Positions 27,727 to 61,309 of a stretch of 64,000 bases of DNA are shown in pieces. The position numbers and the translations under genes are program-made. Each line of letters starts with the position of its first letter. Positions within the stretch are counted from its first letter, which is position 1. This DNA is from a virus, in IMG/VR virus record IMGVR_UViG_3300020179_002092, positions 10,496 through 74,495 of that record; one strand, given 5' to 3'. A model generated the notes under the pieces. That model was not told where the DNA came from and did no database searches. It was given only the letters and a program-made list of their open reading frames with translations.

Positions 27727-30147
27727 TTAAATACTAATTGTTGCAACTACTTCACTAATACCAGCGTTTAATATTCTAATATCTACAATTACATCACCGG
27801 TATTACTTGTTGTTATTGTAGTTTGTTGTAATTCGGTACCAGCAACAACAAATTTCATACTAGTACCAGTAATTGTTAGTGAAACAGGTAAATTATTTAT
27901 TCTTTGATTTAAGAAATTGTATGCAGATACAAGTATTTGACTATTAATAGGTGAATTGTCATAATCATAATTAGTTTGTAGAGTTCTTAATACAATTCTA
28001 ACAGGAATTGATATGCTTAAACTATGAATATTTACATATCCATTATCTGCTGGTGCTTCAGTGGCCCAAATTCTGTCTGTTGCATCCCTGCCTAGACTTG
28101 TAAATATACCAGGTATTTCTGTAGTTGACATCCAACCTTCTGCATCGTTCCACTGATAAATAACTATGCGATCTTGTAGTATCATACCTACAAGTTTTCT
28201 GTCGTCTTTTAAAAATACAATACTTTTAATAGTTGTAGGTACTGTAAACGATGAGTGATAAGTTAATCTTTTTGGCAGTGGAGGAGTAGTTGTAGGATCC
28301 ATATTTACTTTATACGTAAACACAACTCTACCACCACTTGCACTTGATCCACTACTAGTACTACCATATTTATTAAATACACCACTCATAGTGTACATAG
28401 TTAAATATCTGTTTAATTTTTCTATTGGTAAAGCTATACTACTTGGTGTAGTAAACGCTTCTATTACACTTAATGCAGTAGATGAACTTGGTGTAACACT
28501 TACAGTTCTTACTTGATTTCCTATTTTTATTACATCACCTGCTACAAGATCTATATTAAAATTAGTACTTACACCTGTTACTAAAAAACCATCCATAACA
28601 GCATTACCAATATTTTGATAGCTAGTGTGATGCTCATTATACATCAAATCTGCTAAACCATTATCAGCACCTTCAGTATTTCTAATAAGTGTTGCACTTG
28701 GTGTGGGTACATTATTAATAAGAGTTCTTCTATTTCTATATCTGCCGCTAATACCGCCAGCAAAATTAGGACCTGCAGGTTTACCAGTAAGCGTACTAGG
28801 ACCAAAACTTTTGCTTAATCCTTCAGTATTATTAGTATTATTAGCAACTGTGTTACCATTATTAAGTGTTATTTCTACAGGAAATCTAGTAAAACTTTCT
28901 GCTCCACTAGTTGTCCAAGTGTACAAATAAGGATAATAATTTCCTACTTTATCAAAATAGGGAGTAAACCAGTGTCTAATGTTAATATTACTAGAGTTAT
29001 AAAAAACTTTTGAAGAAAATTTAGCAAATTCACCTAGTGCTGTGCTATTTGTATTTCGTTTTCCAGGGGAAAATCTTACAGTTTCTGGCACCGTCGGCGC
29101 GTCGTCTAACTTTGTTACAACTGTAGTATTAAGCGGAGCAGAGGTTTCGCCTGCTTTATGTGAAACTAAATAGCCTACATGATCACTTCTACAATCGTTA
29201 AAGAAATAAGTAGGAACGTTAGATGCATTTTTACCAACATATTGACCAATCATTTCATCAAATAATGTAACAGGTGCTGATGGTGAACCAGTGGTGCCAA
29301 ATAATTGTAATGGTCCGCTACGCTCTCCAGTTCGTATATTTATACGTCTAAGTGCAAAAGTTGGTCTAATTACTTTGCCAAATTCACTAATAGGATAGAA
29401 ACTGTCGGCACCGCGTCCGGTAGCCCCTCCTGCTATAGAAATTTTACCGCTGCTAGTTATACATAATTCAGAAACCCAACCAGTATTACCATCTTCTTCA
29501 GTGGGAAGTGCAAAATATACTCCCTGCGAAGCCTCTGTATAGGATTGAGTTTGTATTTGTGTACCGGCACTAATTATAGTAGGCGGTACTGCATACATTT
29601 CTTGAGGACTTCCGCCACCGGGCCAAAGTATAACAGTTAGAGGGCCACCATAGCTGCCATCAATATACCACATAACTGTTACTGTAGTTAAATCGTTTGA
29701 TATAACTCTATTTATTACACCGCGTTGTAAACCTTCAACCATGTTTAAATAGTTAGTTACTATTAAGTTAGTTTGACTGTTCATGTTTAATACATCAACA
29801 GCGGCAGTAGCAGCACTCATGTCATTGCCAAGAATAGTATGACCAGCATAAGCAACATCTTTAGTTAAAGCCATAGTACTGCCAGGAAATAATCCGCTTC
29901 TTGCAATAGCACCTAGGACGTTAGGTGCTACTGTTTCTAGAATATTTCTATTTTTTAGATGAATATTACTACCACGATAATCAACGCGATTTCCACCTGG
30001 AGTCATAAACATATGACTATTATGTTTATAGGCTAAAGTATCTTTTGAATAACCTTCACCTTCTAAATAAATTGTGTTCTTTCCTGGATTGGGATCCTCA
30101 AAAACACTAATTACACCTTTTTTTGTAGCATATTTAATTATAGCCAT
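27727..30147 (-). CDS. Putative virion protein, 'EDPxP' paralog family
   Basis: Shares FEDPNP, LTYHS, SLGRDATDRIW and a C-terminal Ig-like domain with the ORFs at 42162, 46077 and 47861. Confidence 0.65.
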   Translation of the reverse strand: MAIIKYATKKGVISVFEDPNPGKNTIYLEGEGYSKDTLAYKHNSHMFMTPGGNRVDYRGSNIHLKNRNILETVAPNVLGAIARSGLFPGSTMALTKDVAYAGHTILGNDMSAATAAVDVLNMNSQTNLIVTNYLNMVEGLQRGVINRVISNDLTTVTVMWYIDGSYGGPLTVILWPGGGSPQEMYAVPPTIISAGTQIQTQSYTEASQGVYFALPTEEDGNTGWVSELCITSSGKISIAGGATGRGADSFYPISEFGKVIRPTFALRRINIRTGERSGPLQLFGTTGSPSAPVTLFDEMIGQYVGKNASNVPTYFFNDCRSDHVGYLVSHKAGETSAPLNTTVVTKLDDAPTVPETVRFSPGKRNTNSTALGEFAKFSSKVFYNSSNINIRHWFTPYFDKVGNYYPYLYTWTTSGAESFTRFPVEITLNNGNTVANNTNNTEGLSKSFGPSTLTGKPAGPNFAGGISGRYRNRRTLINNVPTPSATLIRNTEGADNGLADLMYNEHHTSYQNIGNAVMDGFLVTGVSTNFNIDLVAGDVIKIGNQVRTVSVTPSSSTALSVIEAFTTPSSIALPIEKLNRYLTMYTMSGVFNKYGSTSSGSSASGGRVVFTYKVNMDPTTTPPLPKRLTYHSSFTVPTTIKSIVFLKDDRKLVGMILQDRIVIYQWNDAEGWMSTTEIPGIFTSLGRDATDRIWATEAPADNGYVNIHSLSISIPVRIVLRTLQTNYDYDNSPINSQILVSAYNFLNQRINNLPVSLTITGTSMKFVVAGTELQQTTITTSNTGDVIVDIRILNAGISEVVATISI

Positions 30148-30422: not shown

Positions 30423-30434
30423 TTTGTATATTCC

Positions 30435-31013: not shown

Positions 31014-31385
31014 CTATTGAGGTATAACAACCTCAATCCAACTTGTGGTACTTTCATCCCAACGATACATCTTACCATCTGTGGGCATTGCGGTAGGTGC
31101 TTGCCATAAGCCAGCGGCATCATCTAGTTGCCAGCTCGCAAAAGGCTTAGGAGGAATAAAAGCATCACGTTCAGGATCATAGCTGTAGCCAATGCCAGCA
31201 TAATTTTTGCGAAATGGTGTGCCACCACCGTTATGTACTCCACCATGTGTGTTATAACTGGTGCGCTTGCACAATTGACCACGAAACTGACCGTAGTGTG
31301 CTTCCCAATCATAGTTTGATTCATCTTTACCTACGATAACTTCAGTAACGATGTAGTTTTCATCTAAAAATGCATAATGTGCCAT
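31014..31385 (-). CDS. Conserved phage protein associated with glycine-rich tail proteins (possible chaperone)
   Basis: MAHYAFLD...RTSYNT..FRKNYAGIGYSYD..DAFIPPKPFASW; AAGGA RBS. Confidence 0.7.
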   Translation of the reverse strand: MAHYAFLDENYIVTEVIVGKDESNYDWEAHYGQFRGQLCKRTSYNTHGGVHNGGGTPFRKNYAGIGYSYDPERDAFIPPKPFASWQLDDAAGLWQAPTAMPTDGKMYRWDESTTSWIEVVIPQ

Positions 31386-31423
31386 TTGTTGTTTTCCTTA
31401 TAGAAAATAATAATATACTGTAT

Positions 31424-34309
31424 TTATGTTAGACTGAATGTGACGGTGCCTGTACCGGCTGTGAATGACAGTATTCTAGATCCCACTACAGCGGTTGTGT
31501 TGTTAGTGAATGTCAGGCCAGCTGATACTGTGGCTGTATATACGCTAGGTATACGCAGTACAACTATGCCGGAACCACCTGCGCCTCCTGCGTAAAAAGT
31601 ATTAGGCCCAGTAGCAAAACCACCGCCACCTCCTCCTCCCCCGGTATTAGCTGTACCAGATGATCCTGTAGCCGAAGTAACACCATTGCCACCGCCCCCT
31701 GAACCACCTGTTCCAGCGGTGCTTGTTTGTCTAAAGTCTGGAGCACCTCCACCCCCACCTGCATAAGTTACAGTTGAGCCAGTTATTACGGAATTTGCCC
31801 CAGCACCGCCATTTCCTCCCGCAGATGTTGTTGCATTTACTCCAATAGCATTTGCACCGCCCCCACCTGCTCCAACAGGATAACCTCCAAAAACTCCAGT
31901 TCCTCCAGTATTTCCTTGGCTAGGTGAAGTTGATGGCGTATTTCCTGAACCTCCTACTCCATTAGTAGGGTTAGAACCACCCCCGCCACCGCCCGAACCA
32001 CCGCTTAATCCGTTTTGATTTGGCGCTATAGTACAACCCCCGCCACCGCCTTTTGTAGAAGTAATTGTGCTGAAAACAGAATCTGACCCAGACACTCCTA
32101 CATTTTGAGTTCCAGATGCGCCGCCTGCGCCACCACCACCAACTGTAATCTCATAGCTAGTTCCTGTGTTAACACTTAATACTGTTCCGGCCCTGAAACC
32201 TCCTGCGCCACCTCCACCACCACCATTACCACTAGAGCCGCCGCCGCCTCCGGCCACTACCAAGTATTCTACTGTGAGTGGGGGTGGTGTAGTTTGTAGC
32301 GCAAAAGTACCAGTACCGGCGGTAAATCTAGTATGACGATATCCCCCACCTTGGCTGATGGTTTCCGCAGTTAAGCCGGTGCCGATGCTAGCGTAGTAAG
32401 TGTCAGGATAGCGTACAATAACTACGCCGGAACCGCCGGCACCACCATTACCGGCTCTACCAGCTCCACCACCTCCACCTGTGTTGGCATTACCTGATGT
32501 GCCGTTTCCAGTACCAAACACACCAGTACCTCCTCCTCCTGCGCCACCTGCACCAGCTGTGCCTGTAGAAGTTGATCCACCTCCACCTCCAGCATAAGTT
32601 ACTGACGATCCTGTGATAGAAGATGATAAGCCGGCACCGCCGCTACCTCCACCTCCAGTAGTGCCGGTAGTACCTACTGCTCCGGCACCTCCACCTCCAC
32701 CCCCTGCTCCGTAGGAACCCGATGAGTGATTTGCAGTACCACCGTTATTTCCCTGACTAGGTGTTGTAGCAGGTGTATTTCCTAAGCCGCCGGCATAGGA
32801 CCCCGAAGATAAGGCTATTGATCCTCCACCACCTGAGCCACCATTTCCAGCATTTGCGCCTCCATAGGCTTGTCCACCTTTGCCTCCACCAGTAGAAGTA
32901 ATAGTATGAAAAGAAGAATCAGAACCATTAGTAGGATTTGTAGAACTGCTTTGTATTGCGCCCGCTCCGGCAGCTCCAACAGTTACAGTATATGATGTTC
33001 CTGCAACTATCGAAAAATCAGCTGCTGTTCTAAATCCACCTGCACCTCCACCTCCAGAAACATCAGTGTAACCTCCACCCCCACCACCACCGGCTACCAC
33101 TAGGTAATCTACCGAAATAGGCGGATTATTACTAAAAAATACATTACCAGTGCCCGCGGTAAAGGTTGATACTTTGTTGGCGCCGATGGTGACAGTTGAT
33201 GTGGTCAAGCCCGAGCCTGGGATCATGTAATACACTGCGGGATAGCGTAGGATCACAATACCAGAACCACCTGTCCTTCCGCCTACAGAGTCGCCCGGAG
33301 TTATCCAACCACCGCCCCCACCGCCCCCACCAGTGTTTGTAGTTCCCGCAGTTGATGATGCTACTAAAGAATTAGGTGTTTCTGAACTTAGGCTACCGTT
33401 TCCACCACCACCTTGTCCACCTAAACCTTGCTTTGACGCAGGTTGTGATCCGGGGTAAAGAGCTCCACCACCACCTCCACCACTGTAATAAGTAAGAGTA
33501 CCCGTAATTAAACTTGTTCCGCCAACACCACCATTTGCCGCAGTAGTTAGTAATCCACTTGCACCAATGCCACCAGCACCGCCACCAGCACCACCTGCAT
33601 AATTTGGAGGACTTCTATATCCGGCACCACCTGCATTACCTTGACTAGGCGTGGTAGAAGGGGTATTACCCGGCCCACCTGCATTTCCTGTAGATCCACC
33701 GGCTTGCCCACCGCCACCTGATCCACCTGATCCACCGGTATTGCTATAGCCGTTAGCAGAACTACCGCCACCGCCGCCGCCACCTGTTGAGGTAATACTA
33801 CCAAATATACTATTACTACCCGCACTACCATTATCAAAAACCGCTCCTGGTCCTGTTCCACCGGCCCCCACTGTAACTGTATAAGTTGTAGTAAAATTTA
33901 CTGTACTAGTTCCTGTTCTAAATCCACCTCCACCTCCACCTCCTGCAAGATATCCACCCCCACCTCCGCCACCGGCAACTACCAAATAATCTACACTCAT
34001 TGTAGTCAGCGAGCTAGTAACACCAGATACCGTGATCCAAGCTGCCAAGGTGGCATCATAGTATTCAACACGATCTAAGTCGGTGTTGAATCGAACATAA
34101 CCATCATTTACCGAAGTCGGGCGTTGGGCTGTGGTGCCGCGAGGTAGGCTGAAGAATCCTGTGCTGGTATTGTCTCGATCCGACACATCAGCAGGCCCGG
34201 TTATGCTAGACCCAACTTTATTCCAGCTATTACCGTCATAACGCCACACAATATTATTATAAGTATAAGTTTGGTTAGTGCTAGGGCTTAAGGGAAATGA
34301 TATTGGCAT
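31424..34309 (-). CDS. Glycine-rich tail/fibre protein (three Gly-rich domains)
   Basis: Three units from (D/E)YLVVAGGGGGG to GGSG(I/V)V(I/V)xRxP; LPRGTTAQRP anchor domain. Confidence 0.8.
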   Translation of the reverse strand: MPISFPLSPSTNQTYTYNNIVWRYDGNSWNKVGSSITGPADVSDRDNTSTGFFSLPRGTTAQRPTSVNDGYVRFNTDLDRVEYYDATLAAWITVSGVTSSLTTMSVDYLVVAGGGGGGGYLAGGGGGGGFRTGTSTVNFTTTYTVTVGAGGTGPGAVFDNGSAGSNSIFGSITSTGGGGGGGSSANGYSNTGGSGGSGGGGQAGGSTGNAGGPGNTPSTTPSQGNAGGAGYRSPPNYAGGAGGGAGGIGASGLLTTAANGGVGGTSLITGTLTYYSGGGGGGALYPGSQPASKQGLGGQGGGGNGSLSSETPNSLVASSTAGTTNTGGGGGGGGWITPGDSVGGRTGGSGIVILRYPAVYYMIPGSGLTTSTVTIGANKVSTFTAGTGNVFFSNNPPISVDYLVVAGGGGGGGYTDVSGGGGAGGFRTAADFSIVAGTSYTVTVGAAGAGAIQSSSTNPTNGSDSSFHTITSTGGGKGGQAYGGANAGNGGSGGGGSIALSSGSYAGGLGNTPATTPSQGNNGGTANHSSGSYGAGGGGGGAGAVGTTGTTGGGGSGGAGLSSSITGSSVTYAGGGGGSTSTGTAGAGGAGGGGTGVFGTGNGTSGNANTGGGGGAGRAGNGGAGGSGVVIVRYPDTYYASIGTGLTAETISQGGGYRHTRFTAGTGTFALQTTPPPLTVEYLVVAGGGGGSSGNGGGGGGAGGFRAGTVLSVNTGTSYEITVGGGGAGGASGTQNVGVSGSDSVFSTITSTKGGGGGCTIAPNQNGLSGGSGGGGGGSNPTNGVGGSGNTPSTSPSQGNTGGTGVFGGYPVGAGGGGANAIGVNATTSAGGNGGAGANSVITGSTVTYAGGGGGAPDFRQTSTAGTGGSGGGGNGVTSATGSSGTANTGGGGGGGGFATGPNTFYAGGAGGSGIVVLRIPSVYTATVSAGLTFTNNTTAVVGSRILSFTAGTGTVTFSLT

Positions 34310-34318
34310 GATTTAATC

Positions 34319-37300
34319 CTAGTTAAATGTTACAGTACCGGTTCCGGCTGTGACTGAATATACTCGATAACCTGTTACCGCGGTGTTTGATTGAGTCACA
34401 GTCAGGCCAGCTGAAAATGTGGCTGTGTATAGATTGGGTATGCGTAGGATGACTACGCCAGAACCACCTGTACCGGCCAATCCGGTACTAACATACGAAC
34501 TGCCACCGCCACCGCCACCGGTGTTTACTAATCCTGATCCGGCTGCTCTTGTATATACAGAAGAAGCATTTAATAAAGCACCATCGCCTCCTCCCCCAAA
34601 TCCACCTGCTCCGCCACCGCCCGACGCTCCACTGTTTCTTAAACTACTAGATCCACCACCGCCACCAGCATAACTCACAGATGAGCCTGTTATAGACAAG
34701 TTAGCACCTATACCACCAGCGCCACCCGAACTACTACCGGTTCCATTTCCTCCTATACCACCAGCACCGCCGCCTCCGCCGCCGTCGTAGGTGGTATTCA
34801 TTGTACCATTACCACCTGTATTACCTTGACCTGAGGTTCCAGCTGCTCCTGTATTATTTGTAGAGCCACCTAATCCACCTCCACCGCTTCCACCAGACAC
34901 AGCCGGGCCAGGTATATTACCTGCGCCATATCCGCCACCAATAGCAGTAAAGGAAGAAAAAATACTATTACTACCAGAAGTTTGATTTACAGAAGGACTA
35001 TATTGTCCTGCTGTGCCGCCACCCCCTACACTAACATTATAAGGAACACCGGATTGAATGTTTGTTCCTGTCCCTGTTAAGAGTCCACCAGCTCCCCCAC
35101 CACCACCAGTACTAGAACCACCGCCACCTCCGCCAGCCACTACCAAATAATCTACTGTAAGTGGTGGTGTGGTGGTGAATGAGATTGATCCTGTGCCCGC
35201 AGTAAATCTTGTGTATTTCTCTGCTGCATTTATTGTGACTGTTTCTGCGGTGAGTCCGGTTCCGAGATTGATATAGTAGTTGGTAGAATAGCGTAGAATG
35301 ACTACACCACTGCCACCTGTGCCACCGTTGCCGTATGTTGTATCATTATTTCTATGAGAAGCGCCACCGCCACCACCTGTATTAGCAGTACCATCACCAC
35401 CTGCATTAGGTGCTCCCGTCGCCCCAGAATTTCCGCCTCCACCCAATCCGCCAGAACCTGGTGTGCCTCCAGTATATGTTCCGCCGCCGCCTCCACCAGC
35501 ATAATAAGTAGACGATCCTGTAATAGAACTTAGTGCTCCTATCCCGCCATTACCACCGGTGGTAGAGGTTCCGTTAGCACCAACAGAACCAGCACCTCCA
35601 CCACCACCAGAACCATAATTTCCTGTACTAACACTACCGCCACCATTGTTGCCCTGACTAGGTGTTGTGCTAGGGGTATTTCCTGCACCAATGGCTCCGC
35701 TGTACCCTGCCCCACCACCAGAACCGCCGCTGCCACCTGCACCCGACCCTGTGCCCCCGCCCTGTCCCGAAGTACCACCGAATCCACCGCCTGTTGTGGA
35801 TATACCCGAAAATGCACTACCGCTTCCAGGAGAACCTTGTGTTTGAAGTGAACCAGATCCAGTGCCCCCACTACCACCAGCACCAACTGTTACAGTATAG
35901 GTTGTATTAAGTTGTATAGTACTTTGTGTACTAGTTAATAGTCCTCCTGCTCCACCTCCACCCCCCAAGCCTCTTACACCTCCACCGCCACCAGCAACTA
36001 CTAGATACTGTACAGCAATGGGCGGTGTTGTTGAAAAACTGACAGTGCCAGTGCCAGCTGTGAATGTGATGATTTTGAATCCACCTACTATAACAGAGCT
36101 TGATGTTAGCCCAGCTGATACTGTTTCATAATATAGTATAGGATATTTGATAATAACAATACCAGAGCCGCCCGAATAACCGCCCTGACTTCCGCTGCCA
36201 CCACCGCCACCACCACCGGAATTTGTTGTACCTGCTGCTCCAGCAACAGTGCCGGCGCCTTTTCCGCCCCCACCTAAACCACCAGTACCGCCATTGGTTC
36301 CATTGAAAGTTCCGCCACCGCCACCGCCAGCGTAATATCCAGTAGAAGGTGATCCACCATGGCCAGCTGCACCGAAAGATGAAGCAAATGATGGACCTAT
36401 TAGACCACTTCCGCCATTGCCACCAGTTCCTCCAGATGGTCTGGCTGATCCTGCACTACCAGCACCACCACCACCAGATGCATCTGTTGTATCGCTACCC
36501 AGAGTCGCGCCATTTTGACCTTGTGTAGTTGAAATTTCGCCTGAAATAGGAGTTATTGCAATTGCAGCCCCACCAGGGCCATTATAACCAGCGCCACCAC
36601 CAGAACCCCCAGTAAGACCTGGACTACCTGGCGCAACACCGCCACCGCCACCGCCACCTTTTGATGTAATAGAGTGTAAGATTGAATCGCTGCCTGTTGA
36701 TCCACCACTGGCGCTACCTGTGTTTGTACTTCCTGCGCCACCCCCACCTATAGTAATTGTATAATTTGTGTCTGACAGAAGAAATAAATTAGTACCATAT
36801 CTCATTCCTCCAGCACCGCCACCGCCACCATGACGAGAGCCACCTCCACCTCCACCAGCGACTACTAGATACTCAATATCAAAGCTAGTGGAAACAGCAG
36901 CACCAGCTGTCTGTTGTAGGGCCATCCATGATTGATAAGTTGAATTATAGTATTCTACTTGTAGGGTAGTAGTATTATATCTAACATATCCTGATTGTGG
37001 TGTTACAGGACGCTGTGCTGTGGTACCAGCTGGTAAACTTATAAAATCTGTAGCTGAATTTGGTTGTCCGCTGACAGCCGCAATATTGGCTGAGCCCCCT
37101 CCACCACTGACCACTGCCCAAGCATTACCAAAGTAAGCATTGAGGTCACCAGTTTCTGAATTCAACCATAAGTTGCCTTCCCCTGATCCAGCTGGTCGAG
37201 TACCACTTACTGTAACCGATGCTCCGCCTCCACCACTACTAGCACTGGTAATTTGTCCAGCTTCATTAACCGTAATATTGGCATGAGTATAGCTGCCTGG

Positions 37301-37348
37301 GGTAACACCTGTGGTGGCTAGCATTGTTGTTGGAACTTTTGTAGGCAT
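34319..37348 (-). CDS. Glycine-rich tail/fibre protein (three Gly-rich domains)
   Basis: Same architecture as the adjacent paralog; LPAGTTAQRP domain. Confidence 0.8.
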   Translation of the reverse strand: MPTKVPTTMLATTGVTPGSYTHANITVNEAGQITSASSGGGGASVTVSGTRPAGSGEGNLWLNSETGDLNAYFGNAWAVVSGGGGSANIAAVSGQPNSATDFISLPAGTTAQRPVTPQSGYVRYNTTTLQVEYYNSTYQSWMALQQTAGAAVSTSFDIEYLVVAGGGGGGSRHGGGGGAGGMRYGTNLFLLSDTNYTITIGGGGAGSTNTGSASGGSTGSDSILHSITSKGGGGGGGVAPGSPGLTGGSGGGAGYNGPGGAAIAITPISGEISTTQGQNGATLGSDTTDASGGGGAGSAGSARPSGGTGGNGGSGLIGPSFASSFGAAGHGGSPSTGYYAGGGGGGTFNGTNGGTGGLGGGGKGAGTVAGAAGTTNSGGGGGGGSGSQGGYSGGSGIVIIKYPILYYETVSAGLTSSSVIVGGFKIITFTAGTGTVSFSTTPPIAVQYLVVAGGGGGVRGLGGGGGAGGLLTSTQSTIQLNTTYTVTVGAGGSGGTGSGSLQTQGSPGSGSAFSGISTTGGGFGGTSGQGGGTGSGAGGSGGSGGGAGYSGAIGAGNTPSTTPSQGNNGGGSVSTGNYGSGGGGGAGSVGANGTSTTGGNGGIGALSSITGSSTYYAGGGGGGTYTGGTPGSGGLGGGGNSGATGAPNAGGDGTANTGGGGGASHRNNDTTYGNGGTGGSGVVILRYSTNYYINLGTGLTAETVTINAAEKYTRFTAGTGSISFTTTPPLTVDYLVVAGGGGGGSSTGGGGGAGGLLTGTGTNIQSGVPYNVSVGGGGTAGQYSPSVNQTSGSNSIFSSFTAIGGGYGAGNIPGPAVSGGSGGGGLGGSTNNTGAAGTSGQGNTGGNGTMNTTYDGGGGGGAGGIGGNGTGSSSGGAGGIGANLSITGSSVSYAGGGGGSSSLRNSGASGGGGAGGFGGGGDGALLNASSVYTRAAGSGLVNTGGGGGGSSYVSTGLAGTGGSGVVILRIPNLYTATFSAGLTVTQSNTAVTGYRVYSVTAGTGTVTFN

Positions 37349-42128: not shown

Positions 42129-42161
42129 AATTCATATCTCTTATTAGATATTTACCTTATA

Positions 42162-45683: not shown

Positions 45684-45684
45684 A

Positions 45685-47852: not shown

Positions 47853-47860
47853 AAAAATTC

Positions 47861-50101
47861 CTATAAATTAATACTAGCAGAAATTTGTGTTTGTCCTGGC
47901 CCTACAATCGTGACTGGTACTGAAACTGAATTTGAATTACTAGTGGTTACTTGTACAATATTGGTATTATTTGCAAATAATATATTTCTACTATTTGCTG
48001 TTAATGTTATTGTGCTGGCCACCCTATTATTATAGAAATCATATGCGTTAACTATAATATTGGTACTAATTGCCGTGCCTTGATACGTGTATCTAGTAGT
48101 TGTTCCTGGTACTGGATTGCTTAAAGCTATATCAACTCTTGTTGGCATATTTTCTTTAAACATATGAATATCTACTCTACCTAAGTTAGGATTTCTAGTA
48201 GTTACCCAGATTCTATTTTGGCTATCTACTCCTATACCTCTGGCTCTAATACTAGCTATATATCCTGGCTGCCAGCCTGTTGAAACATGCATAGTTCCAC
48301 TGGCTGTACCACTAATCAGAGTACCACTATCATTAACCGTTACTACAAAAGTAAAACTATTTTCGTTCAATACATTATTAACTCTATAACAACCATTAGG
48401 TGCATTACTATCTGCCACGGCCCCACTAGTTGTTATAATTTCTCCTGCTATTAAACCATGAGCAGTTTTATTTACTGTAACGGTAGTTAGTCCACCAACT
48501 ACTGAATAAGACCAAGAGGTTGCGTCAAATTCTGTTGTATCAAATGTATATATACCTGTACCTGCTGTACTAGCTATAACAATTTTATCGCCATTTGTAT
48601 TGTACGGCACCCATGTTAGTGGAAAGTCATTAGGAGTTAAAAAACTAATAGCGCTATGAAAAGTTAGTTGACTATCGTTTGCTTCAATTTTAAAAGTTAG
48701 CCATGTTCTGGCTTTTACAGTTGGTAATCTTGCACTATTGCTATAAATAAATTTATCAATAACAGTAAAAGTTATGTAGTTTACATTATTTTTTGTAAAC
48801 TGATGTCCTCGTTGCCAATAGTTATTTATACCAAACGTGTTATAGTTATTAGCAGTAGGTATAGCAGCATACGTTGCAAAACTTGTTCCTGCCGGAAAAT
48901 TTTCTATACAATTAGTAGTTGCAATTGTACCAGTAGATTTTGTCCATTCTATCCTTAATACAGCTAAATCTGTTGTACTAAAAGGGGCGTAATAAAATAC
49001 CTTTCGATTTTCTGTAGCATGTCTTATGTTACTAGGTAATGATGGAAAAACATTATTTGTAAGTGTTCCAGAAGGCAATTGACTGCTAGTTACTGTTGTT
49101 TCTGTAAATGGAGCACTAAGAGTATATTTATATATACTTAAATTCGCTGGATTAATTTGCTCTACTCTGCAAAACCATATATGACTAGGGTCTGTACCCA
49201 TAAAAAATTTATAACCACCTAGATTCAATTGAGTGTAAGTAGGTCTGCTAACTCCGGCTGTTGTGCTATTATCTTCGTAAGTATAATTGTGTCCGTATAG
49301 AACAACTGCTCTACACCCATTACTGGCAATTGCTGCAGCTTGTGCTTCATTTTCAATACCCCAACCTCTATACGCAGTACCTGTTACTGTAACCGTACCT
49401 CCAGCAGTTCCGCTAGGAGCTGTACCAAGTGTAATAGTAAAACTATTAGCATTAGGTACTGACGATATAGAAAATAGTCCATTAGGGGGGTTAGTCGAAG
49501 AAATAGCTCCAGATACTGTTACATAGTCTCCGGTAAAAAATCCGTGATTACCTTTATTAATAGTAATAGTTACACCAGAGTAAGACCACGAATCTGCAGT
49601 AAATGTTATATTTTCTACATGTTCTAATAAATGTACATAGTAAAAAGTATCTGTATGTCTCCAGCTATTGCTACGACGAGTCATCTCTTTACCCAGCCAC
49701 CAGTCTCCTTGAGTATCTCCAGCTGAGGAGGTTCTAGGGTAGGTGGCCACAGTAGTACCTAAAGCACTTCTCCATACTCTAGTAGGTTTTGCAGACTCTA
49801 GGTCCAAGCTAAGCAGCCAATTATCAAATAAGCCCATCATAGCCCATAAATCATTATTACTTGCTGCCCATGCGTTACTATCTATATTATTTAATTGAAT
49901 AGGACCGTAATTATCCCATTCTCCGCTATTTGTGTAAGTATTATACCTAGTTTGCCACTGCCATATTTCTAGTGAGCGAGGAGAAAGATTTGTAAAATTA
50001 AAAGCGAAATTATCTAAAAATATTCTATTTTTGGTGGGATCTGGATCCATCCAGATTGATGGCCATTTATTGTAAGACTTGCAGGTAACTAATTTTGCCA
50101 T
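47861..50101 (-). CDS. 'EDPxP' family virion protein with two inserted small beta-domains
   Basis: WMDPDP, LPSNIRH..RKVFY, LTFHS, GIGVDSQNRIW; two SWSYS..HG(F/L)..G(D/E)..SGA..PNG inserts. Confidence 0.7.
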   Translation of the reverse strand: MAKLVTCKSYNKWPSIWMDPDPTKNRIFLDNFAFNFTNLSPRSLEIWQWQTRYNTYTNSGEWDNYGPIQLNNIDSNAWAASNNDLWAMMGLFDNWLLSLDLESAKPTRVWRSALGTTVATYPRTSSAGDTQGDWWLGKEMTRRSNSWRHTDTFYYVHLLEHVENITFTADSWSYSGVTITINKGNHGFFTGDYVTVSGAISSTNPPNGLFSISSVPNANSFTITLGTAPSGTAGGTVTVTGTAYRGWGIENEAQAAAIASNGCRAVVLYGHNYTYEDNSTTAGVSRPTYTQLNLGGYKFFMGTDPSHIWFCRVEQINPANLSIYKYTLSAPFTETTVTSSQLPSGTLTNNVFPSLPSNIRHATENRKVFYYAPFSTTDLAVLRIEWTKSTGTIATTNCIENFPAGTSFATYAAIPTANNYNTFGINNYWQRGHQFTKNNVNYITFTVIDKFIYSNSARLPTVKARTWLTFKIEANDSQLTFHSAISFLTPNDFPLTWVPYNTNGDKIVIASTAGTGIYTFDTTEFDATSWSYSVVGGLTTVTVNKTAHGLIAGEIITTSGAVADSNAPNGCYRVNNVLNENSFTFVVTVNDSGTLISGTASGTMHVSTGWQPGYIASIRARGIGVDSQNRIWVTTRNPNLGRVDIHMFKENMPTRVDIALSNPVPGTTTRYTYQGTAISTNIIVNAYDFYNNRVASTITLTANSRNILFANNTNIVQVTTSNSNSVSVPVTIVGPGQTQISASINL

Positions 50102-50114
50102 GTTGTATCCTAAA

Positions 50115-50309
50115 TTATTCTTCTGATATTTCGGCTATAATAGGGGGGCCATAGGCTAATTTAACTGATTCCCACCAGATTAAAGATTCTGCTTCTGATT
50201 GCCACGGTAACCCGTTGGTAGGGTTATGAGGCTGTTTTATTATAAGCCTATCATTCTCATAGACTTTTAACGTGTATTCAATAAATGTAGTTGAAAATAT
50301 AGTAGTCAT
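50115..50309 (-). CDS. Small hypothetical protein (cassette partner)
   Basis: KQPHNPTNGLPWQSEAESLIWW; coupled to the upstream collagen gene. Confidence 0.65.
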   Translation of the reverse strand: MTTIFSTTFIEYTLKVYENDRLIIKQPHNPTNGLPWQSEAESLIWWESVKLAYGPPIIAEISEE

Positions 50310-50310
50310 A

Positions 50311-53300
50311 TTATTCTCTGTTATATAAAAAACTAATTACAAGATCAGTTCCCGCAATAGAACTACCTTTTTGCAGCACATCAACTGTAAAATAATCGCC
50401 TTTTATTGAATTAATATTAACGTTAGATTCAATAGAATTAGTAGTAGCAGCTATAGTTAACTGTGCCACTTCGCTAGCATTTTTCTTTATACTTAAAATT
50501 ATACTTGTACCGGTAGGGGCTGTTGAAACCTGTGCTCTTAGTTGGCTGACTAAAATATTACTTTGTATCCACCATCTACTGGTGCCTGTAGAAATATTTA
50601 CTGTACCAGGTAAATTATAGTGCCTTTCTAATATTGTAGGCTGTCCTTGTATACCTTGTATACCTTGTATACCTTGTATACCTTGTTGTCCTATTGTACT
50701 AGTAATTTGCCAAGTAGTTCCATCGTATATAAATTCATATGTAGTACCGCTTATATCTAGTAATACATCATCTGCGTAACCTTCTATAGTACTACTATTT
50801 CTAGCAACTGTTAAGTTAATATTAGCTAAATTAGCTCCATCTGTAATAACTACGTAGTTACCTACTGCAGGACTACTAGGTAGTGTAATAGTAAATGTAC
50901 CACCACTAGTATCAACTATTAATTTATCACCACTTATAGCAGTATAATTTGCTGTTTTTCTTGACCACAGTGAGCTTCCACCAGTAGCTGTAAAAGTAAT
51001 AGATTTTGGAACACTACTAGGGTTGGTTGTTATTTGTACACCACTGCCAGCTATAAATTTAACAGTATCTAAGCCACTAGCTACTAAATCTGCCTGACCG
51101 TCTACTTGCCAAGTTTTAAAAGTAGAATTCATACCTACTTTTACAGCACCACTACCTAGGTTAGTTACATCAAAACCACTGTCGCTATCAAATCTTAGTG
51201 CAGTAACACTAGACACTGCTTGACTAGTTACATTAGAACTATTTATAAGGCTAACTTCCATTAAAGTACCACTAGTACCTTGTATACCCTGACCAGCAAA
51301 CTCTCCGTGTAATCCTTGTATACCTTGTACGCCTTGTACGCCTTGATTTTGATTAAAACCACCACCTTGTATACCTTGCGTACCCTGTATACCTTGTGGA
51401 CCAAGATTAGTAATATTAATAATACCTGCCATTGACCCATGATGTTGGCAATTATAATATAATGTATTTGGTGCATCATAAGGTACAACAAATGTAATGG
51501 TACCATTATCAATACCATTATTGGTTACTCCAGTGTTGTATTGATCACCTGTACCAGTTGTTTGAGTCGTTTTTATCCAAAAAGTATGACCACTAGCAGA
51601 AATAGAAAAGTAATAAGTAAATCCTCTTATAAAGTTAAGAGTAGGATTATTAGATCCATTTATTACATAGGCACCACTTCCAGAATTAGTAACAGTATAG
51701 GTAGCTCCTCCTACTAATCCTTGTATACCTTGGTTGCCTTGTGGCCCTTGACATCCTTGTGTACCTTGAGTACCTTGTGGTCCCTGTATACCTTGAATAC
51801 CTACAGCTCCGCTAAGATCACTTTGATAGCTCCAGCTAGTACCAGTCCATAAATATAGTTTACTATTATCAGGATCTTCTGAATTAATTGTATTTACTAA
51901 AGCAAACTGACCTCCTACAATATTTGTAGGATTAGTATCTGCTAATAATGCAGATACTGTTGAATATACTTTTGCAATAACAAAACCTAAACCAGTATCG
52001 CCTCGTAATCCTTGTAGTCCCTGTATACCTTGTATACCTTGTATACCTTGATTTTGATCAAAGCCACGTCCCTGCAATCCTTGCAGCCCTTGCAGCCCTT
52101 GCAACCCTTGCAACCCTTGCAGCCCTTGCAACCCTTGATTCTGATCAAAACCACCACCTTGTAATCCTTGTACACCTTGTGGTCCAATTACTCCTTGTTC
52201 ACCTTGTGGTCCTGTATAACCTTCTGGTCCTTCTGGCCCAATTTGCCCATGTTCACCTCGTGTACCCTGTAATCCTTGAGACACTAGTAATGTCCAATTG
52301 TTTCCTTCAATAGGTATAATACCAGAAGTAAGTGTAAATATCATTGATCCACTTATAGTTCCTTCAGTAAACCCTATAGGTGTTCCACCAATAGCTGTAC
52401 TTAATTTAAATTGAAAACTAGCGTCCGGTACAGAAATAATATAGTAGTATGTTCCTAACGGATTATAACCGATAATTGTTGCTGTGCCACCATCATTAGT
52501 TCCAGATACATATACTCTATCTCCTACCCTTAATCCCTGATCTAAATTAACTGGATTACAACTAATTATACCTGTAGAATTTATACTTATATTAGTTAGT
52601 GTTTCAGTTATAAAATTTTCTTTTACTAGCCAGTTACTACCAATATAGTGAACGATATCAAAATATTCATAATTTGCTGTTGAATTCCAGATACCTTTAG
52701 GAGTAAATCTTCTACCTTGTGTACCTTGCGTACCTTGACTTTGATCAAATCCACCACCCTGTATACCTTGTGGTCCTTGTGGTCCTTGTGGCCCATATGG
52801 TCCTTGTATACCTTGATTTTGGTCAAAACCACCACCCTGTAGTCCTTGTCTACCTTGTGTACCTTGTCTACCTTGTGTACCTTGTCTACCTTGTAGTCCT
52901 TGTATACCTTGATTTTGATCAAAGCCACCACCCTGTAGCCCTTGTTGACCTTGTGGCCCTTGTGGCCCTTGTATACCTTGTGATCCTTGTATACCTTGAT
53001 TTTGATCAAAGCCACCACCCTGTAGTCCTTGTGTACCTTGTGTACCTTGTGTACCTTGTGTACCTTGTCTACCTTGTGTACCTTGTGTACCTTGATTTTG
53101 ATCAAAGCCACCACCCTGTAGTCCTTGTGTACCTTGTACACCTTGTGGTCCTTGTCTACCTTGAGTACCTTGAGTACCTTGATTTTGATCAAAACCACCA
53201 CCCTGTAGTCCTTGTCTACCTTGTGTACCTTGTCTACCTTGTGTACCTTGTCTACCTTGTGTACCTTGTGTACCTTGATTTTGGTCAAAGCCACCACCTT

Positions 53301-56130
53301 GTAGTCCTTGCGTACCTTGAGTGCCTTGTCTACCTTGAGTGCCTTGTCTACCTTGAGTGCCTTGTGTGCCTTGATTTTGATCAAAACCACCACCCTGTAG
53401 TCCTTGTGTACCTTGTGTACCTTGAGTACCTTGAGTACCTTGTCTACCTTGTAGTCCTTGTATACCTTGATTTTGATCAAAGCCACCACCCTGTAGTCCT
53501 TGTAGTCCCTGAATACCTATTCTACCACGTGGTCCTTGTATACCTTGTGTGCCTTGATTTTGATCAAAGCCACCGCCCTGTAGTCCTTGCTGACCTTGTG
53601 TACCTTGTCTACCTTGTGTACCTTGTGTACCTTGTGTACCTTGTGTACCTTGATTTTGGTCAAAGCCACCACCCTGTAGTCCTTGTGTTCCTTGTGGTCC
53701 TTGTGGTCCTTGTGTACCTTGTAGTCCTTGTATACCTTGATTTTGATCAAAGCCACCACCCTGTAGTCCTTGTGTACCTTGTGTACCCTCTAATCCTTGT
53801 GGTCCCTGTGGTCCCTGTGGTCCCTCTAATCCCTGTGGTCCTTGTGGTCCCTCTGGACCAGTATAAACTTCAGCAACAAAGTACTCTCCACTAAAACCTT
53901 GTATACCCTGTGCACCTTCTATACCTATAGGACCTTTTGTACCCTGTGCTCCTTGTGATCCAATTTGTCCTTGTATACCTTGTGATCCAATTTGTCCTTG
54001 TGTACCCTGTAATCCAATTTCTCCTTGTTCACCTGGATCACCTTGTGGTCCGGTTTCTCCAACTTCTCCTTGTTCTCCTTGTAATCCTTGTTCACCTTGT
54101 ACACCTTGCGCACCTTGTACACCTTTTACATTATGAAGCTCTACTATACTCAATACTGGGCCAGTGTAATTACCAAATATAACATTTTCCGCATTTGTCA
54201 TATTTGTAATTGCTAGTGAATATATATATGTTCCTGCTACTACGTCATCTATTATTTGTATAACAAATGGATTTGCAATACCTGTTGTATATGTAGAAAT
54301 AGTAGTTAATTGATCTAATGGTACACCGTCTCTAAGTATGTTTATTTCAGCAATACCTGGATCACCAGTCAATAGAGTAAATAATACATCACCTTGCGCT
54401 ATAATTTGAACTGGGCTACCGCTTGTAGATATTGTTGCTGTAACAATATCTACAGGCAATGACATAAAATAGTCTACAGTTACTGGATAAGGTTCTTTAG
54501 TTTGTACGTAATTTACTGAACTATATAGATAACTATTACCTTGTATGCCCTGTATACCTGGTTGCCCTTCGACACCTTGTATACCTTGTATACCTGGTTC
54601 GCCTATGCCTTGTATACCTTGTATACCTTGTGGACCTTGTATACCTTGTGGACCTGTAAAAGTTTCTATAGCAAAAAATTCACCTGTTGTTCCCTGTATA
54701 CCAATAAGACCTTGCTCACCTTGTATACCTTGTATACCTTGACCATCAGCACCTTGAATACCTTGCTCACCTTGTATACCTTGAGCAGCGTACTCACCTG
54801 CAATACCTTGTATACCTTGCTCACCTTGAGGACCTTGTTCACCTTGAGGACCTTGTTCACCTTGAGGACCTTGTTCACCTTGAGGACCTTGCGGTCCCTC
54901 TGGACCGGTATAAATTTCAGCAACAAAATATTCTCCGCTAGGACCCTGCTCACCTTGTGGCCCCTGTGGTCCCTGTGGTCCCTGTGGTCCTTCTGGACCA
55001 GTATAAACTTCGGCAACAAAATACTCTCCACTAGGACCTTGTATACCCTGTGCACCTTCTATACCTATAGAACCTTCTGCACCTTGAGCTCCTTCTGCAC
55101 CTTGAGCACCCTGAATACCTTGTACTTCAAAACCTCTAGGACCTTGTATACCGATTTCTCCGGCTGTACCTTGTAGACCTTCTGGGCCTTGTGCACCATC
55201 ACTGCCAGTAATAGGTATCCAACTGCCGCTACTATAAATATATAGTTTAGATTCTGTAGTATTATACCACAATAAATTTTCTATTTCATCTGTAGGAGCA
55301 ATTGATCCTGCTCTAACAAATTGACTAAGATTAATTCCTTGAGCAGAACCTGGTGGTGTAACTATTAAGCTACCATCTTCTGCAATACTAACACTAGTAT
55401 CACCTAAATAAATTGTACTAGGTGCTAAATATAGTGATCTAAATCTTTTTGTTGGACTACCTAAGTCGAATGTTTTATCTAATGTAGGTATTATATCGCT
55501 ATCTATTTTTGCTAAATTAGCTGCTGTTCCTGATAGTCCTTGTATGCCTTGTATTCCCTGTCTTCCATCAAATCCTTGAGGTCCTTGGGTACCTTGTAAA
55601 CCCTGCAGGGCAATCATAGAAAAAATACTGCCAACAAATAACCAGTTTGATGCGCCTGGGGGACCTAGCCACAAATACACTCTACCATTATCAGGATCAC
55701 TTAAGCTAGTAGTTTTTACTATAGCAAACTCACCTGCTGTCATTGGCTGGCCAACGGCTATCTGTGGATTAAAATCTCCTTCTAGTATTGATCTACTAAT
55801 ATAAATTTTAGTTATTCTAAATACGCCTACATCGCCTTTAGAACCTGTAGGCCCTATAGGTCCTAGTAAACCTTGAATACCTTGTCGACCTTGAATACCT
55901 TGTCGACCTTGCATACCTTGAAGGCCTTGCCAACCTTGAATACCCTGCCAACCTTGAAGACCTTGACGGCCTTGAAGACCTTGAATGCCTTGAATGCCTT
56001 GAATGCCTTGAATGCCCCTAGAAACACTAGCTACCCATCTTGGATTATAAGCGTCATAAGTATAGGTTACACCACCAACAGTAAAAGTTTGACCATTAAT
56101 TGCACCATTTGGAAAATTTATAGCTGGCAT
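50311..56130 (-). CDS. Giant collagen-like (Gly-X-Gln) fibre protein, multi-domain
   Basis: Long G-X-Q tracts alternate with globular domains, including a cupredoxin-like domain, a gp9/10-like [13 protein letters not shown] domain and a C-terminal [10 protein letters not shown] domain. Confidence 0.85.
52260..52716. repeat. Direct repeat copy A (457 bp, ~96% identical to 63412-63868)
   Basis: Manual alignment: 20 mismatches, no indels. Confidence 0.9.
52733..53790 (-). repeat. Tandem array of 12 GGGFDQ(N/S)Q units separated by 6-8 G-X-Y triplets (period mostly 87 or 96 bp)
   Basis: Recurrent tgattttgatcaaagccaccaccctgtagtcc on the + strand, in frame with the collagen gene. Confidence 0.85.
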
Positions 56131-61307: not shown

Positions 61308-61309
61308 AA

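Follow-up and report, generated by a model that had tools for sequence, protein, structure and literature searches.

The three genes analysed here, encoding a fibre or short anchor protein with a C-terminal knob, a small tryptophan-motif protein and a large protein predicted to be a beta-propeller, constitute a genuine module that is both conserved and mobile. Two homologous copies were found in the window, which is the whole 64,000-nt stretch analysed (positions 10,496 to 74,495 of IMG/VR record IMGVR_UViG_3300020179_002092). The same gene order was found in many aquatic phages, on dozens of viral contigs.

Two cassettes in one genome

The phage that carries the window is T5-like, with genes for at least 10 fibre-like proteins within 39 kb. 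The first-pass annotation, made from the letters alone, had placed eight ORFs of cassettes and paralogues on the minus strand, and all eight coordinates were exact (Table 1). It had also read the same three-gene order twice, and all three genes were homologous between the copies. The description as a duplicated cassette was correct as to homology, but the duplication is not recent: the midpoint root of the tip tree separates the two tips, and each window cassette has separate orthologues in other phages. In cassette 1 the fibre and small genes are separated by 1 nt, and the small and propeller genes by 13 nt. In cassette 2 a 12-nt gap follows the knob gene, and the stop of the small gene overlaps the propeller start by 1 nt. 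Overlaps of 4 nt and 8 nt were found in loci L010 and L011 of other phages. Such abutting or overlapping genes are compatible with translational coupling.

Table 1. Genes of the two cassettes and related genes; coordinates refer to the whole window.
Feature	Coordinates	Strand	Remarks
Collagen-like fibre, 1939 aa	50311-56130	(-)	cassette 1, gene 1
Trp-motif small protein, 64 aa	50115-50309	(-)	cassette 1, gene 2
Putative propeller + C-terminal Ig-like protein, 746 aa	47861-50101	(-)	cassette 1, gene 3
Minimal propeller paralogue, 591 aa	46077-47852	(-)	without its own tip or small gene
130-aa protein between two propeller genes	45685-46077	(-)	basis: position, C-terminal (F/Y)WS ending
Propeller paralogue fused to LamG, He_PIG and Gly_rich_2, 1173 aa	42162-45683	(-)	
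Glycine-rich fibre, 1009 aa	34319-37348		anchor motif in common with the 151-aa protein
Anchor + knob protein, 151 aa	30435-30890	(-)	cassette 2, gene 1
Trp-motif small protein, 91 aa	30147-30422	(-)	cassette 2, gene 2
Divergent propeller-family protein, 806 aa	27727-30147	(-)	cassette 2, gene 3

The knob and its stalks

A common tip domain had been claimed for both first genes. BLASTP aligned the last ~105 aa of the 1939-aa protein with the 151-aa protein (E 7e-13, 31% identity). The knob of the long fibre lies at about 50314-50643 and belongs to tip profile A6. As had been noticed at first, one stalk is a giant collagen stalk and the other is very short: the 1939-aa protein matched Pfam Collagen in 11 stretches (E 1e-79) with GXY repeats that run directly into the knob, and the 151-aa protein consists of a ~40-aa N-terminal anchor motif and the knob (residues 43-151). 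The anchor motif was linked to that of the glycine-rich fibre via orthologues in L008 and L014.

An AF2 model of the 151-aa protein (pLDDT 85.4) predicts that the knob is a TNF/C1q-like jelly roll. In structure comparison the 7-7-1 long tail fibre ranked first, its distal jelly-roll domain (PDB 9RKV) giving Z 10.8 with rmsd 2.3 A over 104 aa, and C1q-family heads gave Z 8-9.3. No match to Pfam C1q was obtained, and a knob profile search of PDB found nothing. C1q/TNF-like heads in other fibres are receptor-binding domains themselves. The knob family comprises 5557 cluster representatives, some of them with other genes downstream in place of propeller cargo, as in Alteromonas phage R22Y.

The small proteins

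The motifs of the small proteins are QP..P..G.PW..E..L.WW (64 aa) and KHP....NG..KW...E...W (91 aa). Orthologues of the former occupy the equivalent position in L008-L011, and an orthologue of the latter (66% identity) does so in L014. BLASTP gave no match between the two, and comparison of the 64-aa family with the 91-aa protein in hhalign gave a probability of 0.6%. We therefore used profile X, built from 17 small proteins of other loci with both window proteins left out. It matched the 64-aa protein (E 4e-6, hhalign 97.8%) and the 91-aa protein (E 3.5e-10, hhalign 93.4%), and none of 500 shuffled sequences scored as high in either case. Since both match an independent profile, they are homologous, as first thought, with the link running only through intermediate sequences.

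Small proteins are at times located between two propellers. A small ORF also stands at the position of the 130-aa gene in L008 (130 aa) and L009 (138 aa); their likeness to the window protein rests on position and on the common C-terminal ending. Family searches with the 130-aa protein, including Pfam, PHROG and NCBIfam, gave no match.

The propeller proteins

The four large proteins, which had been grouped by an EDPxP motif, belong to a single family (profile E 3e-29 to 1e-108). In BLASTP the 746-aa protein matched the 591-aa (E 1e-18), 1173-aa (E 7e-24) and 806-aa proteins (E 2e-12), the last only in the C-terminal 146 aa. A profile built on the family of the 591-aa protein matched the 1173-aa protein with E 1e-108, the 746-aa protein in three collinear pieces (E 7e-92) and the 806-aa protein at residues 3-58 and 581-805 (E 3e-29). 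In the 806-aa protein the recognisable parts are the conserved blade motif at the N-terminus and ~225 aa at the C-terminus (last blades and Ig-like domain), with a divergent middle; PHROG 20698 matched residues 657-802, and homologues are 66-79% identical. The 746-aa protein has two inserted barrel-like segments and about 45 full-length homologues (42-84% identity), three of which carry a precomputed match to PF12195 (endosialidase beta-barrel). In the 1173-aa protein the propeller (1-~524) is followed by Pfam Laminin_G_3, He_PIG and Gly_rich_2. Searches of Pfam and NCBIfam gave no family match for the knob, small and propeller families.

These proteins are predicted to consist of a seven-bladed beta-propeller and, after it, an Ig-like domain. 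In the AF2 model of the 591-aa protein (pLDDT 83.7, pTM 0.86) the propeller spans residues 1-504, which matched seven-bladed propellers (VIA) with Z 12-14, and the Ig-like domain spans 505-591. Foldseek matches included the integrin alpha headpiece, and the nearest viral models were uncharacterised proteins of RP12, PaBG and uncultured phages. EDPxP, PSN, LTYHS and G.D...RIW are, in the model, blade motifs within a single propeller. The EDPxP N-terminus was also considered as a separate anchor or docking peptide, which we rejected because the motif sits in the first modelled blade. Two features ascribed to all four proteins apply to fewer: PSN is absent from the 806-aa protein, and the Ig-like part is not terminal in the 1173-aa protein, being internal and split by the LamG domain. 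Conservation over 44 non-redundant propellers was highest in the Ig-like end and lowest at residues 61-210; several charged residues are invariant.

Recurrence of the module and replacement of its cargo

Gene neighbourhoods across IMG/VR, to which the first-pass annotation had pointed, bore out the gene order as more than a chance arrangement. In a sample of 98 classified knob-bearing genes from IMG/VR and related loci, 44 showed the order knob, small protein, propeller, and another 33 preceded an unrelated small protein and a ~400-aa protein. The three-gene order was found in L008-L011 and L014-L017, with knob carriers of 139 to ~1000 aa (1939 aa in the window). Stalk lengths in the classified loci ranged from about 40 to about 900 residues, and a locus may hold up to three copies of the unit on unrelated stalks. 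Carriers include T4-like myophages besides the T5-like phage of the window.

In 31 loci centred on the small protein, a propeller lay downstream in all 30 untruncated cases and a knob protein upstream in 27; in 3 loci the small protein followed a propeller instead of a knob. In L090 the propeller comes directly after the knob gene with no small gene between, and the 1173-aa window paralogue, like the 591-aa one, has no knob or small partner of its own. The proposal of a dedicated module thus stands as regards a conserved and mobile unit, but it is the propeller, not the knob, with which the small protein is associated.

Replacement of the cargo was seen directly in L040 and L047, whose fibres have 90% protein identity and 84% DNA identity. 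DNA homology stops 10 nt past the fibre stop and resumes beyond the swapped cargo, which is small protein plus propeller (and a 464-aa protein) in one and an unrelated small protein plus ~400-aa protein in the other. Near-identical fibre pairs of this kind, with 90-95% identity that extends over the knob, precede small proteins unrelated to each other (hhalign 0.06%). At least six cargo switches are needed on well-supported branches of the knob tree. Since the fibre is kept while small and large proteins are replaced together, the small protein moves together with the large one, and what stays constant is the scaffold, the knobbed fibre. The swap site in marine T4-like contigs is found just ahead of gp13/gp14-like neck genes, at the end of a described hypervariable host-recognition cluster (PMC7029224), in agreement with the host-recognition setting first suggested.

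Proposed role and alternative explanations

We propose a tailed-phage host-recognition module of scaffold and exchangeable cargo, in which the propeller would be held on the knob, and consider the chances of this reading about even. Gene 1 would supply a fibre or very short anchor ending in a TNF/C1q-like knob, which we take to be trimeric. Genes 2 and 3 would form a matched pair, a Trp-motif protein of 64-95 aa and a seven-bladed propeller with a C-terminal Ig-like domain. The propeller may be a receptor-binding (or glycan-processing) head attached non-covalently to the knob, with the small protein as its cognate adaptor or assembly factor, and both would be carried in virions. The variable blades, about residues 61-210, would be turned to the host, and the conserved Ig-like end with the adjoining first and last blades to the phage. 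If the knob is a trimer and the propeller a monomer, each fibre would have to carry three propellers or have mismatched symmetry. The 32 virion proteins identified from gel bands of Ralstonia phage RP31 include the adjacent tail fibre but lack orthologues of the RP12 proteins that are distant structural homologues.

It is possible, though doubtful, that no physical link exists: the knob would be the receptor-binding head of the fibre itself, the propeller and its helper would join the tail separately, and adjacency would reflect a shared recombination-prone host-range island. Known fibres, the 7-7-1 long tail fibre among them, have TNF/C1q-like jelly rolls as distal domains (PMC12796354), knobs are present in thousands of proteins and beside other neighbours, propeller paralogues exist without a knob gene, and the swap region falls within the known hypervariable cluster (PMC7029224). 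However, the three genes remain neighbours even where the stalks are non-homologous, and one genome may hold two or three such sets. In the 139-151-aa proteins, where the stalk has only ~40 residues, the knob would have little exposure. The 151-aa protein is no more than an anchor motif and the knob, which fits a distal receptor-binding role badly but suits a docking platform. The part that determines specificity would be expected to vary, yet the knob is conserved where the downstream pair has been exchanged.

An ordinary fibre with a Tfa/gp38-like chaperone that folds the knob, the propeller being the next, independent receptor-binding protein, appears unlikely. The tight spacing directly downstream of the fibre gene would suit it, as would the knob protein upstream in most small-centred loci, and genes of Tfa-type chaperones classically sit there (lambda Stf-Tfa, Mu S-U, P2 H-G, T4 gp37-gp38). 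Yet near-identical knobs are followed by unrelated small proteins, homology breaks right past the fibre stop, and the constant downstream neighbour of the small protein is the propeller (30 of 30); in 3 loci a propeller, not a knob protein, also precedes it. The small proteins matched no chaperone family in Pfam, NCBIfam or PHROG. They resemble Tfa chaperones (lambda Tfa, Mu U, P2 G; Pam3 gp25, PMC9608196) in the position of the gene but differ in co-varying with the next gene and not with the fibre tip.

Quite improbable is a cassette that delivers glycan-degrading activity through virion-borne or released enzymes (lactonase-, lyase- or sialidase-like depolymerases): the fold is common to lactonases and Vgb-lyase/SGL-type enzymes, with a weak Atlas lead at 0.77, PF12195 occurs in 746-aa homologues and charged residues are invariant, but Pfam and NCBIfam gave no significant enzyme family, fold matches were generic (Z 12-14 alike for WD40, BamB and nucleoporins) and no catalytic motif was identified.

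Comparison with known systems

In fold and C-terminal fibre position the knob resembles the 'triple jelly roll' of the Agrobacterium phage 7-7-1 long tail fibre (9RKV; PMC12796354), in which small 'garland' proteins touch lower (middle, C-terminal) parts of the fibre (PMC12796354). Among the C1q/TNF heads compared (adiponectin, C1q, collagen VIII/X NC1, Bacillus BclA), the knob of the 1939-aa fibre is like C1q, collagen X and BclA in directly capping a collagen triple helix. It has no detectable sequence relationship to these heads or to that of 7-7-1, is shorter than gC1q (~105 aa against ~130 aa) and comes with a gene pair of its own downstream. To our knowledge, no such pair has been described for 7-7-1/C1q-type proteins.

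T4-type phages encode adhesins and adaptors separately (gp37-gp38 of T2/S16-type phages; the gp10-gp11-gp12 trio of T4), and the adhesin sits non-covalently on a trimeric fibre end. The cassette shares their order of scaffold, small or medium connector and adhesin (the T4 gene order was checked) and, in marine T4-like contigs, an equivalent genome position before gp13/gp14. It differs in lacking homology to them and in its predicted beta-propeller fold, which is not of gp38 or gp12 type. The knob profile gave 0.1% probability against T4 gp9; PHROG 677 matched the L047 fibre, with overlap to gp9/gp10 only in another region of the profile.

Branched systems include LtfA/LtfB (T5-like DT57C, DT571/2), CBA120 TSP1-4, G7C gp63.1/gp66 and phiKp24/K64-1-type hyperbranched fibres. 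In these, several receptor-binding proteins are linked via N-terminal docking domains (T4 gp10-like, XD) on trimeric spikes. CBA120 and phiKp24 are cited in PMC12796354. The window phage is T5-like, as are DT57C and DT571/2. Unlike in these systems, the proposed socket of the module is a C-terminal C1q-like knob, and its cargo would be a propeller with a small partner.

The predicted propeller has seven blades, compared with five in phi11 and six in sialidase. Beta-propellers at the host interface are found in the Gp45 platform of Staphylococcus phage phi11 (PMC4901313) and in K1F endosialidase (PMC13564897), the latter sharing the endosialidase-type barrel insert (PF12195) with 746-aa homologues. 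Neither gave a sequence or specific structural match to the propeller in the top-ranked matches.

The general concept, a separately encoded adhesin or side fibre beside a fibre gene, is already known in other phages. From its genes and predicted folds, the module described here probably hangs exchangeable host-binding heads on fibres.

Relationship between the two cassettes

On the minus strand, cassette 1 encodes a 1939-aa collagen fibre with a C-terminal knob, a 64-aa small Trp-motif protein and a 746-aa large protein (called propeller below), and is followed by 591- and 1173-aa propeller paralogues. Cassette 2 encodes a 151-aa protein made of an anchor and the knob, a 91-aa small protein and an 806-aa propeller. 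Every open reading frame of the first-pass annotation was found in place, and its reading of the stalks held, with a giant collagen stalk (1939 aa) in one copy and a stub of ~40 residues with an anchor motif in the other. The last ~105 residues of the 1939-aa protein aligned with the 151-aa protein (E 7e-13), confirming that both copies contain the knob domain. The large proteins formed one family, as had been proposed: pairwise BLASTP gave E values of 1e-18, 7e-24 and 2e-12, and a profile of the 591-aa family matched the 1173-, 746- and 806-aa proteins at 1e-108, 7e-92 and 3e-29. The PSN motif, described as common to all four large proteins, was missing from the 806-aa protein, which was recognisable only in its N-terminal blade (residues 3-58) and its last ~225 residues.

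The pairing of the small proteins stood in indirect form. Direct comparison of the 64- and 91-aa proteins gave no match, and their similarity was seen only through intermediates. An independent profile, drawn from 17 small proteins at other loci and including neither of the window's, matched the 64-aa protein at E 4e-6 (hhalign 97.8%) and the 91-aa protein at E 3.5e-10 (hhalign 93.4%), scores that no shuffle out of 500 came near. Taken together, the knob, small and large protein matches indicate that all three cassette genes are homologous between the two window copies. The copies are old: in the knob tree the two knobs belong to separate deep branches, and each has its own orthologues elsewhere.

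Structure of the knob and propeller proteins

The 151-aa protein was modelled with AF2 from 55 homologues (pLDDT 85.4, and >90 over most of the domain), giving a jelly-roll at residues 43-151. The best structural match of the knob was the C-terminal triple jelly-roll domain of the 7-7-1 long tail fibre (PMC12796354), with Z 10.8 and an rmsd of 2.3 Å over 104 residues. VIA Z scores were 9.3 for adiponectin, 8.4-8.8 for C1q, 8.4-8.5 for collagen VIII/X NC1 and 8.2-8.8 for BclA; 4-1BBL was also among the matches of this group (range Z 8-9.3), and Foldseek found Cbln1 at E 3e-5. Neither the 151-aa protein nor the C-terminal end of the 1939-aa protein matched Pfam C1q/TNF at E<=0.01, and a PDB profile search with the knob gave chance matches only (E 0.8). 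The model places the knob in the C1q/TNF-like fold class, as a structural member outside the Pfam families. The 1939-aa protein was identified as a collagen-like fibre (Pfam Collagen E 1.3e-79, 11 G-X-Y stretches), and its GXY repeats adjoin the knob directly, which is the architecture of a collagen stalk plus a C1q-like head. From these abutting repeats we infer that the knob would form a homotrimer with threefold symmetry. The collagen region is also broken ~20 times by the non-collagen insert GGGFDQNQG, found as well in neighbouring fibres; such inserts would kink the triple helix, or set its register, at regular intervals.

The 591-aa protein was modelled from 32 homologues (AF2; pLDDT 83.7, pTM 0.86). 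Residues 1-504 aligned with seven-bladed propellers (WD40, lactonase and BamB) at VIA Z 12-14 over 280-295 residues, and Foldseek found the propeller-plus-Ig arrangement of integrin alpha headpieces. The protein is predicted to be a seven-bladed beta-propeller whose N-terminal strands lie within the fold, and its last ~85 residues form an all-beta domain in the model, read as Ig-like. In the model, the EDPxP, PSN, LTYHS and G.D...RIW motifs are all blade motifs: EDPxP...RIF lies between strands of the first blade and is no detachable docking peptide, and the other three belong to further parts of the blades. Among viral models, the nearest came from an uncultured phage (TM 0.67) and from the jumbo phages RP12 and PaBG, all of them uncharacterised proteins, and an Atlas look-up of the 591-aa protein gave a weak lead to Vgb-lyase/SGL-type propellers (0.77). 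Across 44 non-redundant propellers, conservation was highest in the Ig-like end (0.50-0.55), followed by approximately residues 391-450 (0.45-0.47) and the first 30 residues (0.40), and lowest at residues 61-210 (0.18-0.30). This pattern would fit a conserved phage-facing and a variable host-facing side.

Pfam and NCBIfam held no model for the knob, small or propeller family, and PHROG matches were confined to the Ig-like end, to families without an assigned function. No match to known chaperone families was found for the 64- and 91-aa proteins in Pfam, PHROG or NCBIfam, and an Atlas look-up of the former returned unnamed clusters only.

Gene order in other viral loci

The knob profile matched 5557 cluster representatives among 1.84 billion proteins at E<=1e-3 (1652 at E<=1e-10), nearly always at the extreme C-terminus of proteins of 87 to 2328 residues. 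In 50,697 phage records, from which the window's own genome records were possibly left out, no match was found by megablast of window positions 42000-56200 or by tblastn of the 746-aa protein. Scanning viral contigs with the single 746-aa sequence also gave no match; its relatives there were found by alignment query. With the 151-aa protein, tblastn of the phage records matched Alteromonas phage R22Y alone, where the knob ends a 676-aa protein and no match to the small- or propeller-family profiles was found at the locus.

The conserved gene order expected by the first-pass annotation was recovered with the family profiles in IMG/VR. We classified 98 knob-bearing genes, comprising 80 further sampled knob loci, the cassette relatives and the window. 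Downstream of the knob gene, 44 of them had a small-family protein with a propeller, 33 an alternative pair (a ~60-105-aa protein and a ~400-aa protein, in a few cases without the small protein), four a small protein only and two a propeller with no small protein detected; the context was other or truncated in 15. In four relatives of cassette 1, with knob proteins of 139, 139, 304 and 668 aa, the knob gene was followed in turn by the small gene and the 746-like, 591-like, (130-aa) and 1173-like genes, and another locus (L014) kept cassette 2 with an 865-aa gene after it. Three larger contigs carried two or three knob cassettes per locus, at least two of the propeller type, with one of the alternative type in L017. 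A complete 219.7-kb record (L021) carried a propeller cassette and a Gp23-type capsid protein; therefore the module also occurs in T4-like myophages, besides the T5-like phage of the window.

When a narrow small-protein alignment was used as the query, a propeller lay downstream in all 30 untruncated cases among 31 loci, and the upstream gene encoded a knob protein in 27 and another propeller in three (the remaining one being a contig end). The partner of the small protein is the large protein and not the knob.

Several variant arrangements were observed. The 130-138-aa ORFs between the second and third propeller genes in the window and two other loci are alike in position and in their (F/Y)WS ending, and could encode another connector or helper. 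The order in L090 was knob protein, propeller, small protein, propeller, and in L128-L130 the small protein lay between two propellers; these may be chains of propellers. In Ralstonia phage RP12, the tail fibre gene (ORF153) and a propeller homologue (ORF152) overlap stop to start, followed by 93- and 138-aa ORFs and the propeller homologues ORF149 and ORF148; the propeller homologues and small ORFs are annotated as hypothetical. This cultured jumbo phage is a possible experimental entry point.

Cargo exchange behind a constant fibre

The fibres of two loci, L040 and L047, were 90% identical across all 588 residues. Their DNA identity was 84% through the fibre gene and ended 10 nt past the stop codon. 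After the break, L040 carried a small protein, a 604-aa propeller and a 464-aa protein, whereas in L047 the alternative small protein was joined by one of 399 aa, and homology resumed beyond. Two further fibres preceding the alternative pair (L050 and L070) were 93-95% identical to that of L040. The knob tree requires at least six switches of cargo type along its well-supported branches. The genes downstream of the swap resemble the neck genes gp13 and gp14, which places it at the end of the hypervariable host-recognition cluster of marine T4-like myophages (PMC7029224). The knob-ended fibre is a constant scaffold, and the small gene with its large gene is an exchangeable two-gene cargo.

The alternative small protein (~60-105 aa) in many cases ended in DNVWxEWTG, and the alternative large protein (~375-420 aa) ended in ...ACYAFPEDNVPYA. 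Neither had a Pfam or PHROG match, and no relation of the pair to the small or propeller families was detected by profile comparison.

Genome setting

The IMG/VR record containing the window is 74.5 kb long, with an estimated completeness of 66%. The left half of the window encodes on the plus strand a family A DNA polymerase, a DnaB-like helicase, SbcCD-like proteins and a class II ribonucleotide reductase. The polymerase shared 48-49% identity, along 98-99% of its length, with the polymerases of T5-like phages of Vibrio, Aeromonas, Enterobacter and Proteus (103-128 kb), and on this ground the phage is classed, from its replication genes, as a divergent T5-like virus. No tRNA genes were found in the window.

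On the minus strand, fibre-like genes form an unbroken array from ~25 kb up to the end of the window. Within it, a 644-aa subtilase (Pfam Peptidase_S8, E 2e-22), which may be a virion-associated or fibre-processing protease, lies between two giant collagen-like fibre genes. The last ~30 residues of an 88-aa ORF match the C-terminal strand motif (…GYARYTANFT.PTG…) of the LamG repeats in the adjoining 1481-aa fibre; this ORF is a small capping protein or else what is left of a LamG fibre. Directly upstream of the short knob gene, in the window as in L010, a 123-aa protein has Trp-rich C-terminal repeats (…SWQLDD..GLWQAP…YRWDE.T.SWIEV) and relatives at 44-47% identity, and may be a fibre-assembly factor. 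Two ~1000-aa glycine-rich proteins with threefold internal repeats are encoded at a local GC of 0.50-0.52, against ~0.33 in the remaining window. The first ~35 residues of the 1009-aa one recur in the 151-aa knob protein, pointing to an attachment site shared by both.

Coordinates of cassette-associated and neighbouring features
Feature	Sequence	Position	Strand	Other loci
Alternative small and large protein genes	L047	5337-5621 and 5591-6790		L038, L044, L049, L051, L054, L059, L064, L070, L072, L080, others
Tail fibre and propeller homologues	Ralstonia phage RP12, AP017924 (L138)	144252-153695
130-138-aa inter-propeller ORF	window	45685-46077	minus	L008:14055-14447; L009:14783-15199
Knob protein, propeller, small protein, propeller	L090	3324-5282 and downstream
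GGGFDQNQG inserts, 1939-aa gene	window	52600-53900	minus
Neighbouring fibres with GGGFDQNQG	window	58086-64000
644-aa subtilase	window	56150-58084	minus
88-aa ORF	window	41862-42128	minus
123-aa Trp-rich protein	window	31014-31385	minus	L008:1455-1820; L010:943-1317
Two ~1000-aa glycine-rich proteins	window	31424-37348	minus

Discussion

In the simplest model, the propeller would be held non-covalently on the knob, and the small protein would be an adaptor or assembly factor. The knob-small-propeller unit occurs repeatedly on non-homologous stalks, including ~40-residue stubs whose anchor motif is common to other fibres, which argues for a functional tie between the knob and its cargo. We regard this mounting as evenly balanced between true and false, because of the propeller paralogues not tied to a knob, the virion proteome of phage RP31 and the knobs without cargo. 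The RP31 proteome table lists the tail fibre and not the propeller orthologues; the PaBG paper does not mention the propeller homologues.

The same observations bear on the reading that knob and propeller are not linked at all, which we consider rather unlikely. It would account for the wide occurrence of the knob without propeller cargo and for propeller paralogues that come without a knob or small gene of their own, such as the 591- and 1173-aa proteins, a case in L090, and the three propellers of RP12, which lie after a tail fibre without this knob. Against it stands the recurrence of the whole unit on unrelated stalks. A plain fibre-chaperone pair, in which the small protein serves the upstream fibre, is improbable: chaperone-type co-variation with the upstream fibre tip was not found, 90-95% identical fibres precede unrelated small proteins, and the small protein is followed by a propeller in all 30 untruncated loci. 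Its tie to the large protein speaks against a Tfa chaperone of the classical, tip-specific kind. That the propeller is an enzyme and not a binding head, a reading compatible with the others, seems very improbable; PF12195, an endosialidase beta-barrel domain, was recorded on three homologues of the 746-aa protein, Pfam found no sialidase catalytic or chaperone domain in the window propellers, and sialidases were not among the top fold matches listed for the 591-aa model.

Separately encoded adhesins and side fibres include gp37-gp38 of T2/S16, gp10-gp11-gp12 of T4, LtfA/LtfB of T5-like DT57C, and those of CBA120 and G7C. In its working, the cassette would most closely resemble these systems, but it is no member of their families, and no sequence relationship was found. 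We also considered the knob as a gp9/gp10 docking domain. The knob profile scored 0.1% against T4 gp9 (hhalign), the L047 fibre showed no relationship to T4 gp9 or to the PDB, and its match to PHROG 677 covers positions 165-411 whereas T4 gp9 and gp10 match positions 3-112; on these sequence comparisons the candidate was dropped.

More tentatively than the mounting itself, unrelated aquatic tailed phages (T5-like and T4-like) might share a plug-and-socket system. The trimeric C1q-like knob, on any fibre or stub, would be a universal socket for interchangeable heads (seven-bladed propellers or the ~400-aa family), each with its own small adaptor gene; host range would be re-tooled by a two-gene swap behind an unchanged fibre, with several head types per virion.

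For most uncultured aquatic phages, sequence does not reveal the host range. The analysis provides working definitions for three unannotated families, namely the knob (5557 cluster representatives), the small Trp-motif protein and the propeller plus Ig-like protein, which has homologues in two cultured jumbo phages (RP12 and PaBG), and a sharp recombination boundary where specificity modules are exchanged. Should the mounting model prove wrong, the annotation of host-recognition clusters still gains from the families and their linkage. If it is true, it would explain how a phage carries many different heads on few scaffolds, the specificity determinant would be the gene pair after the knob and not the fibre, and the cassette would be a natural scaffold-and-cargo design open to study in laboratory phage-host pairs.
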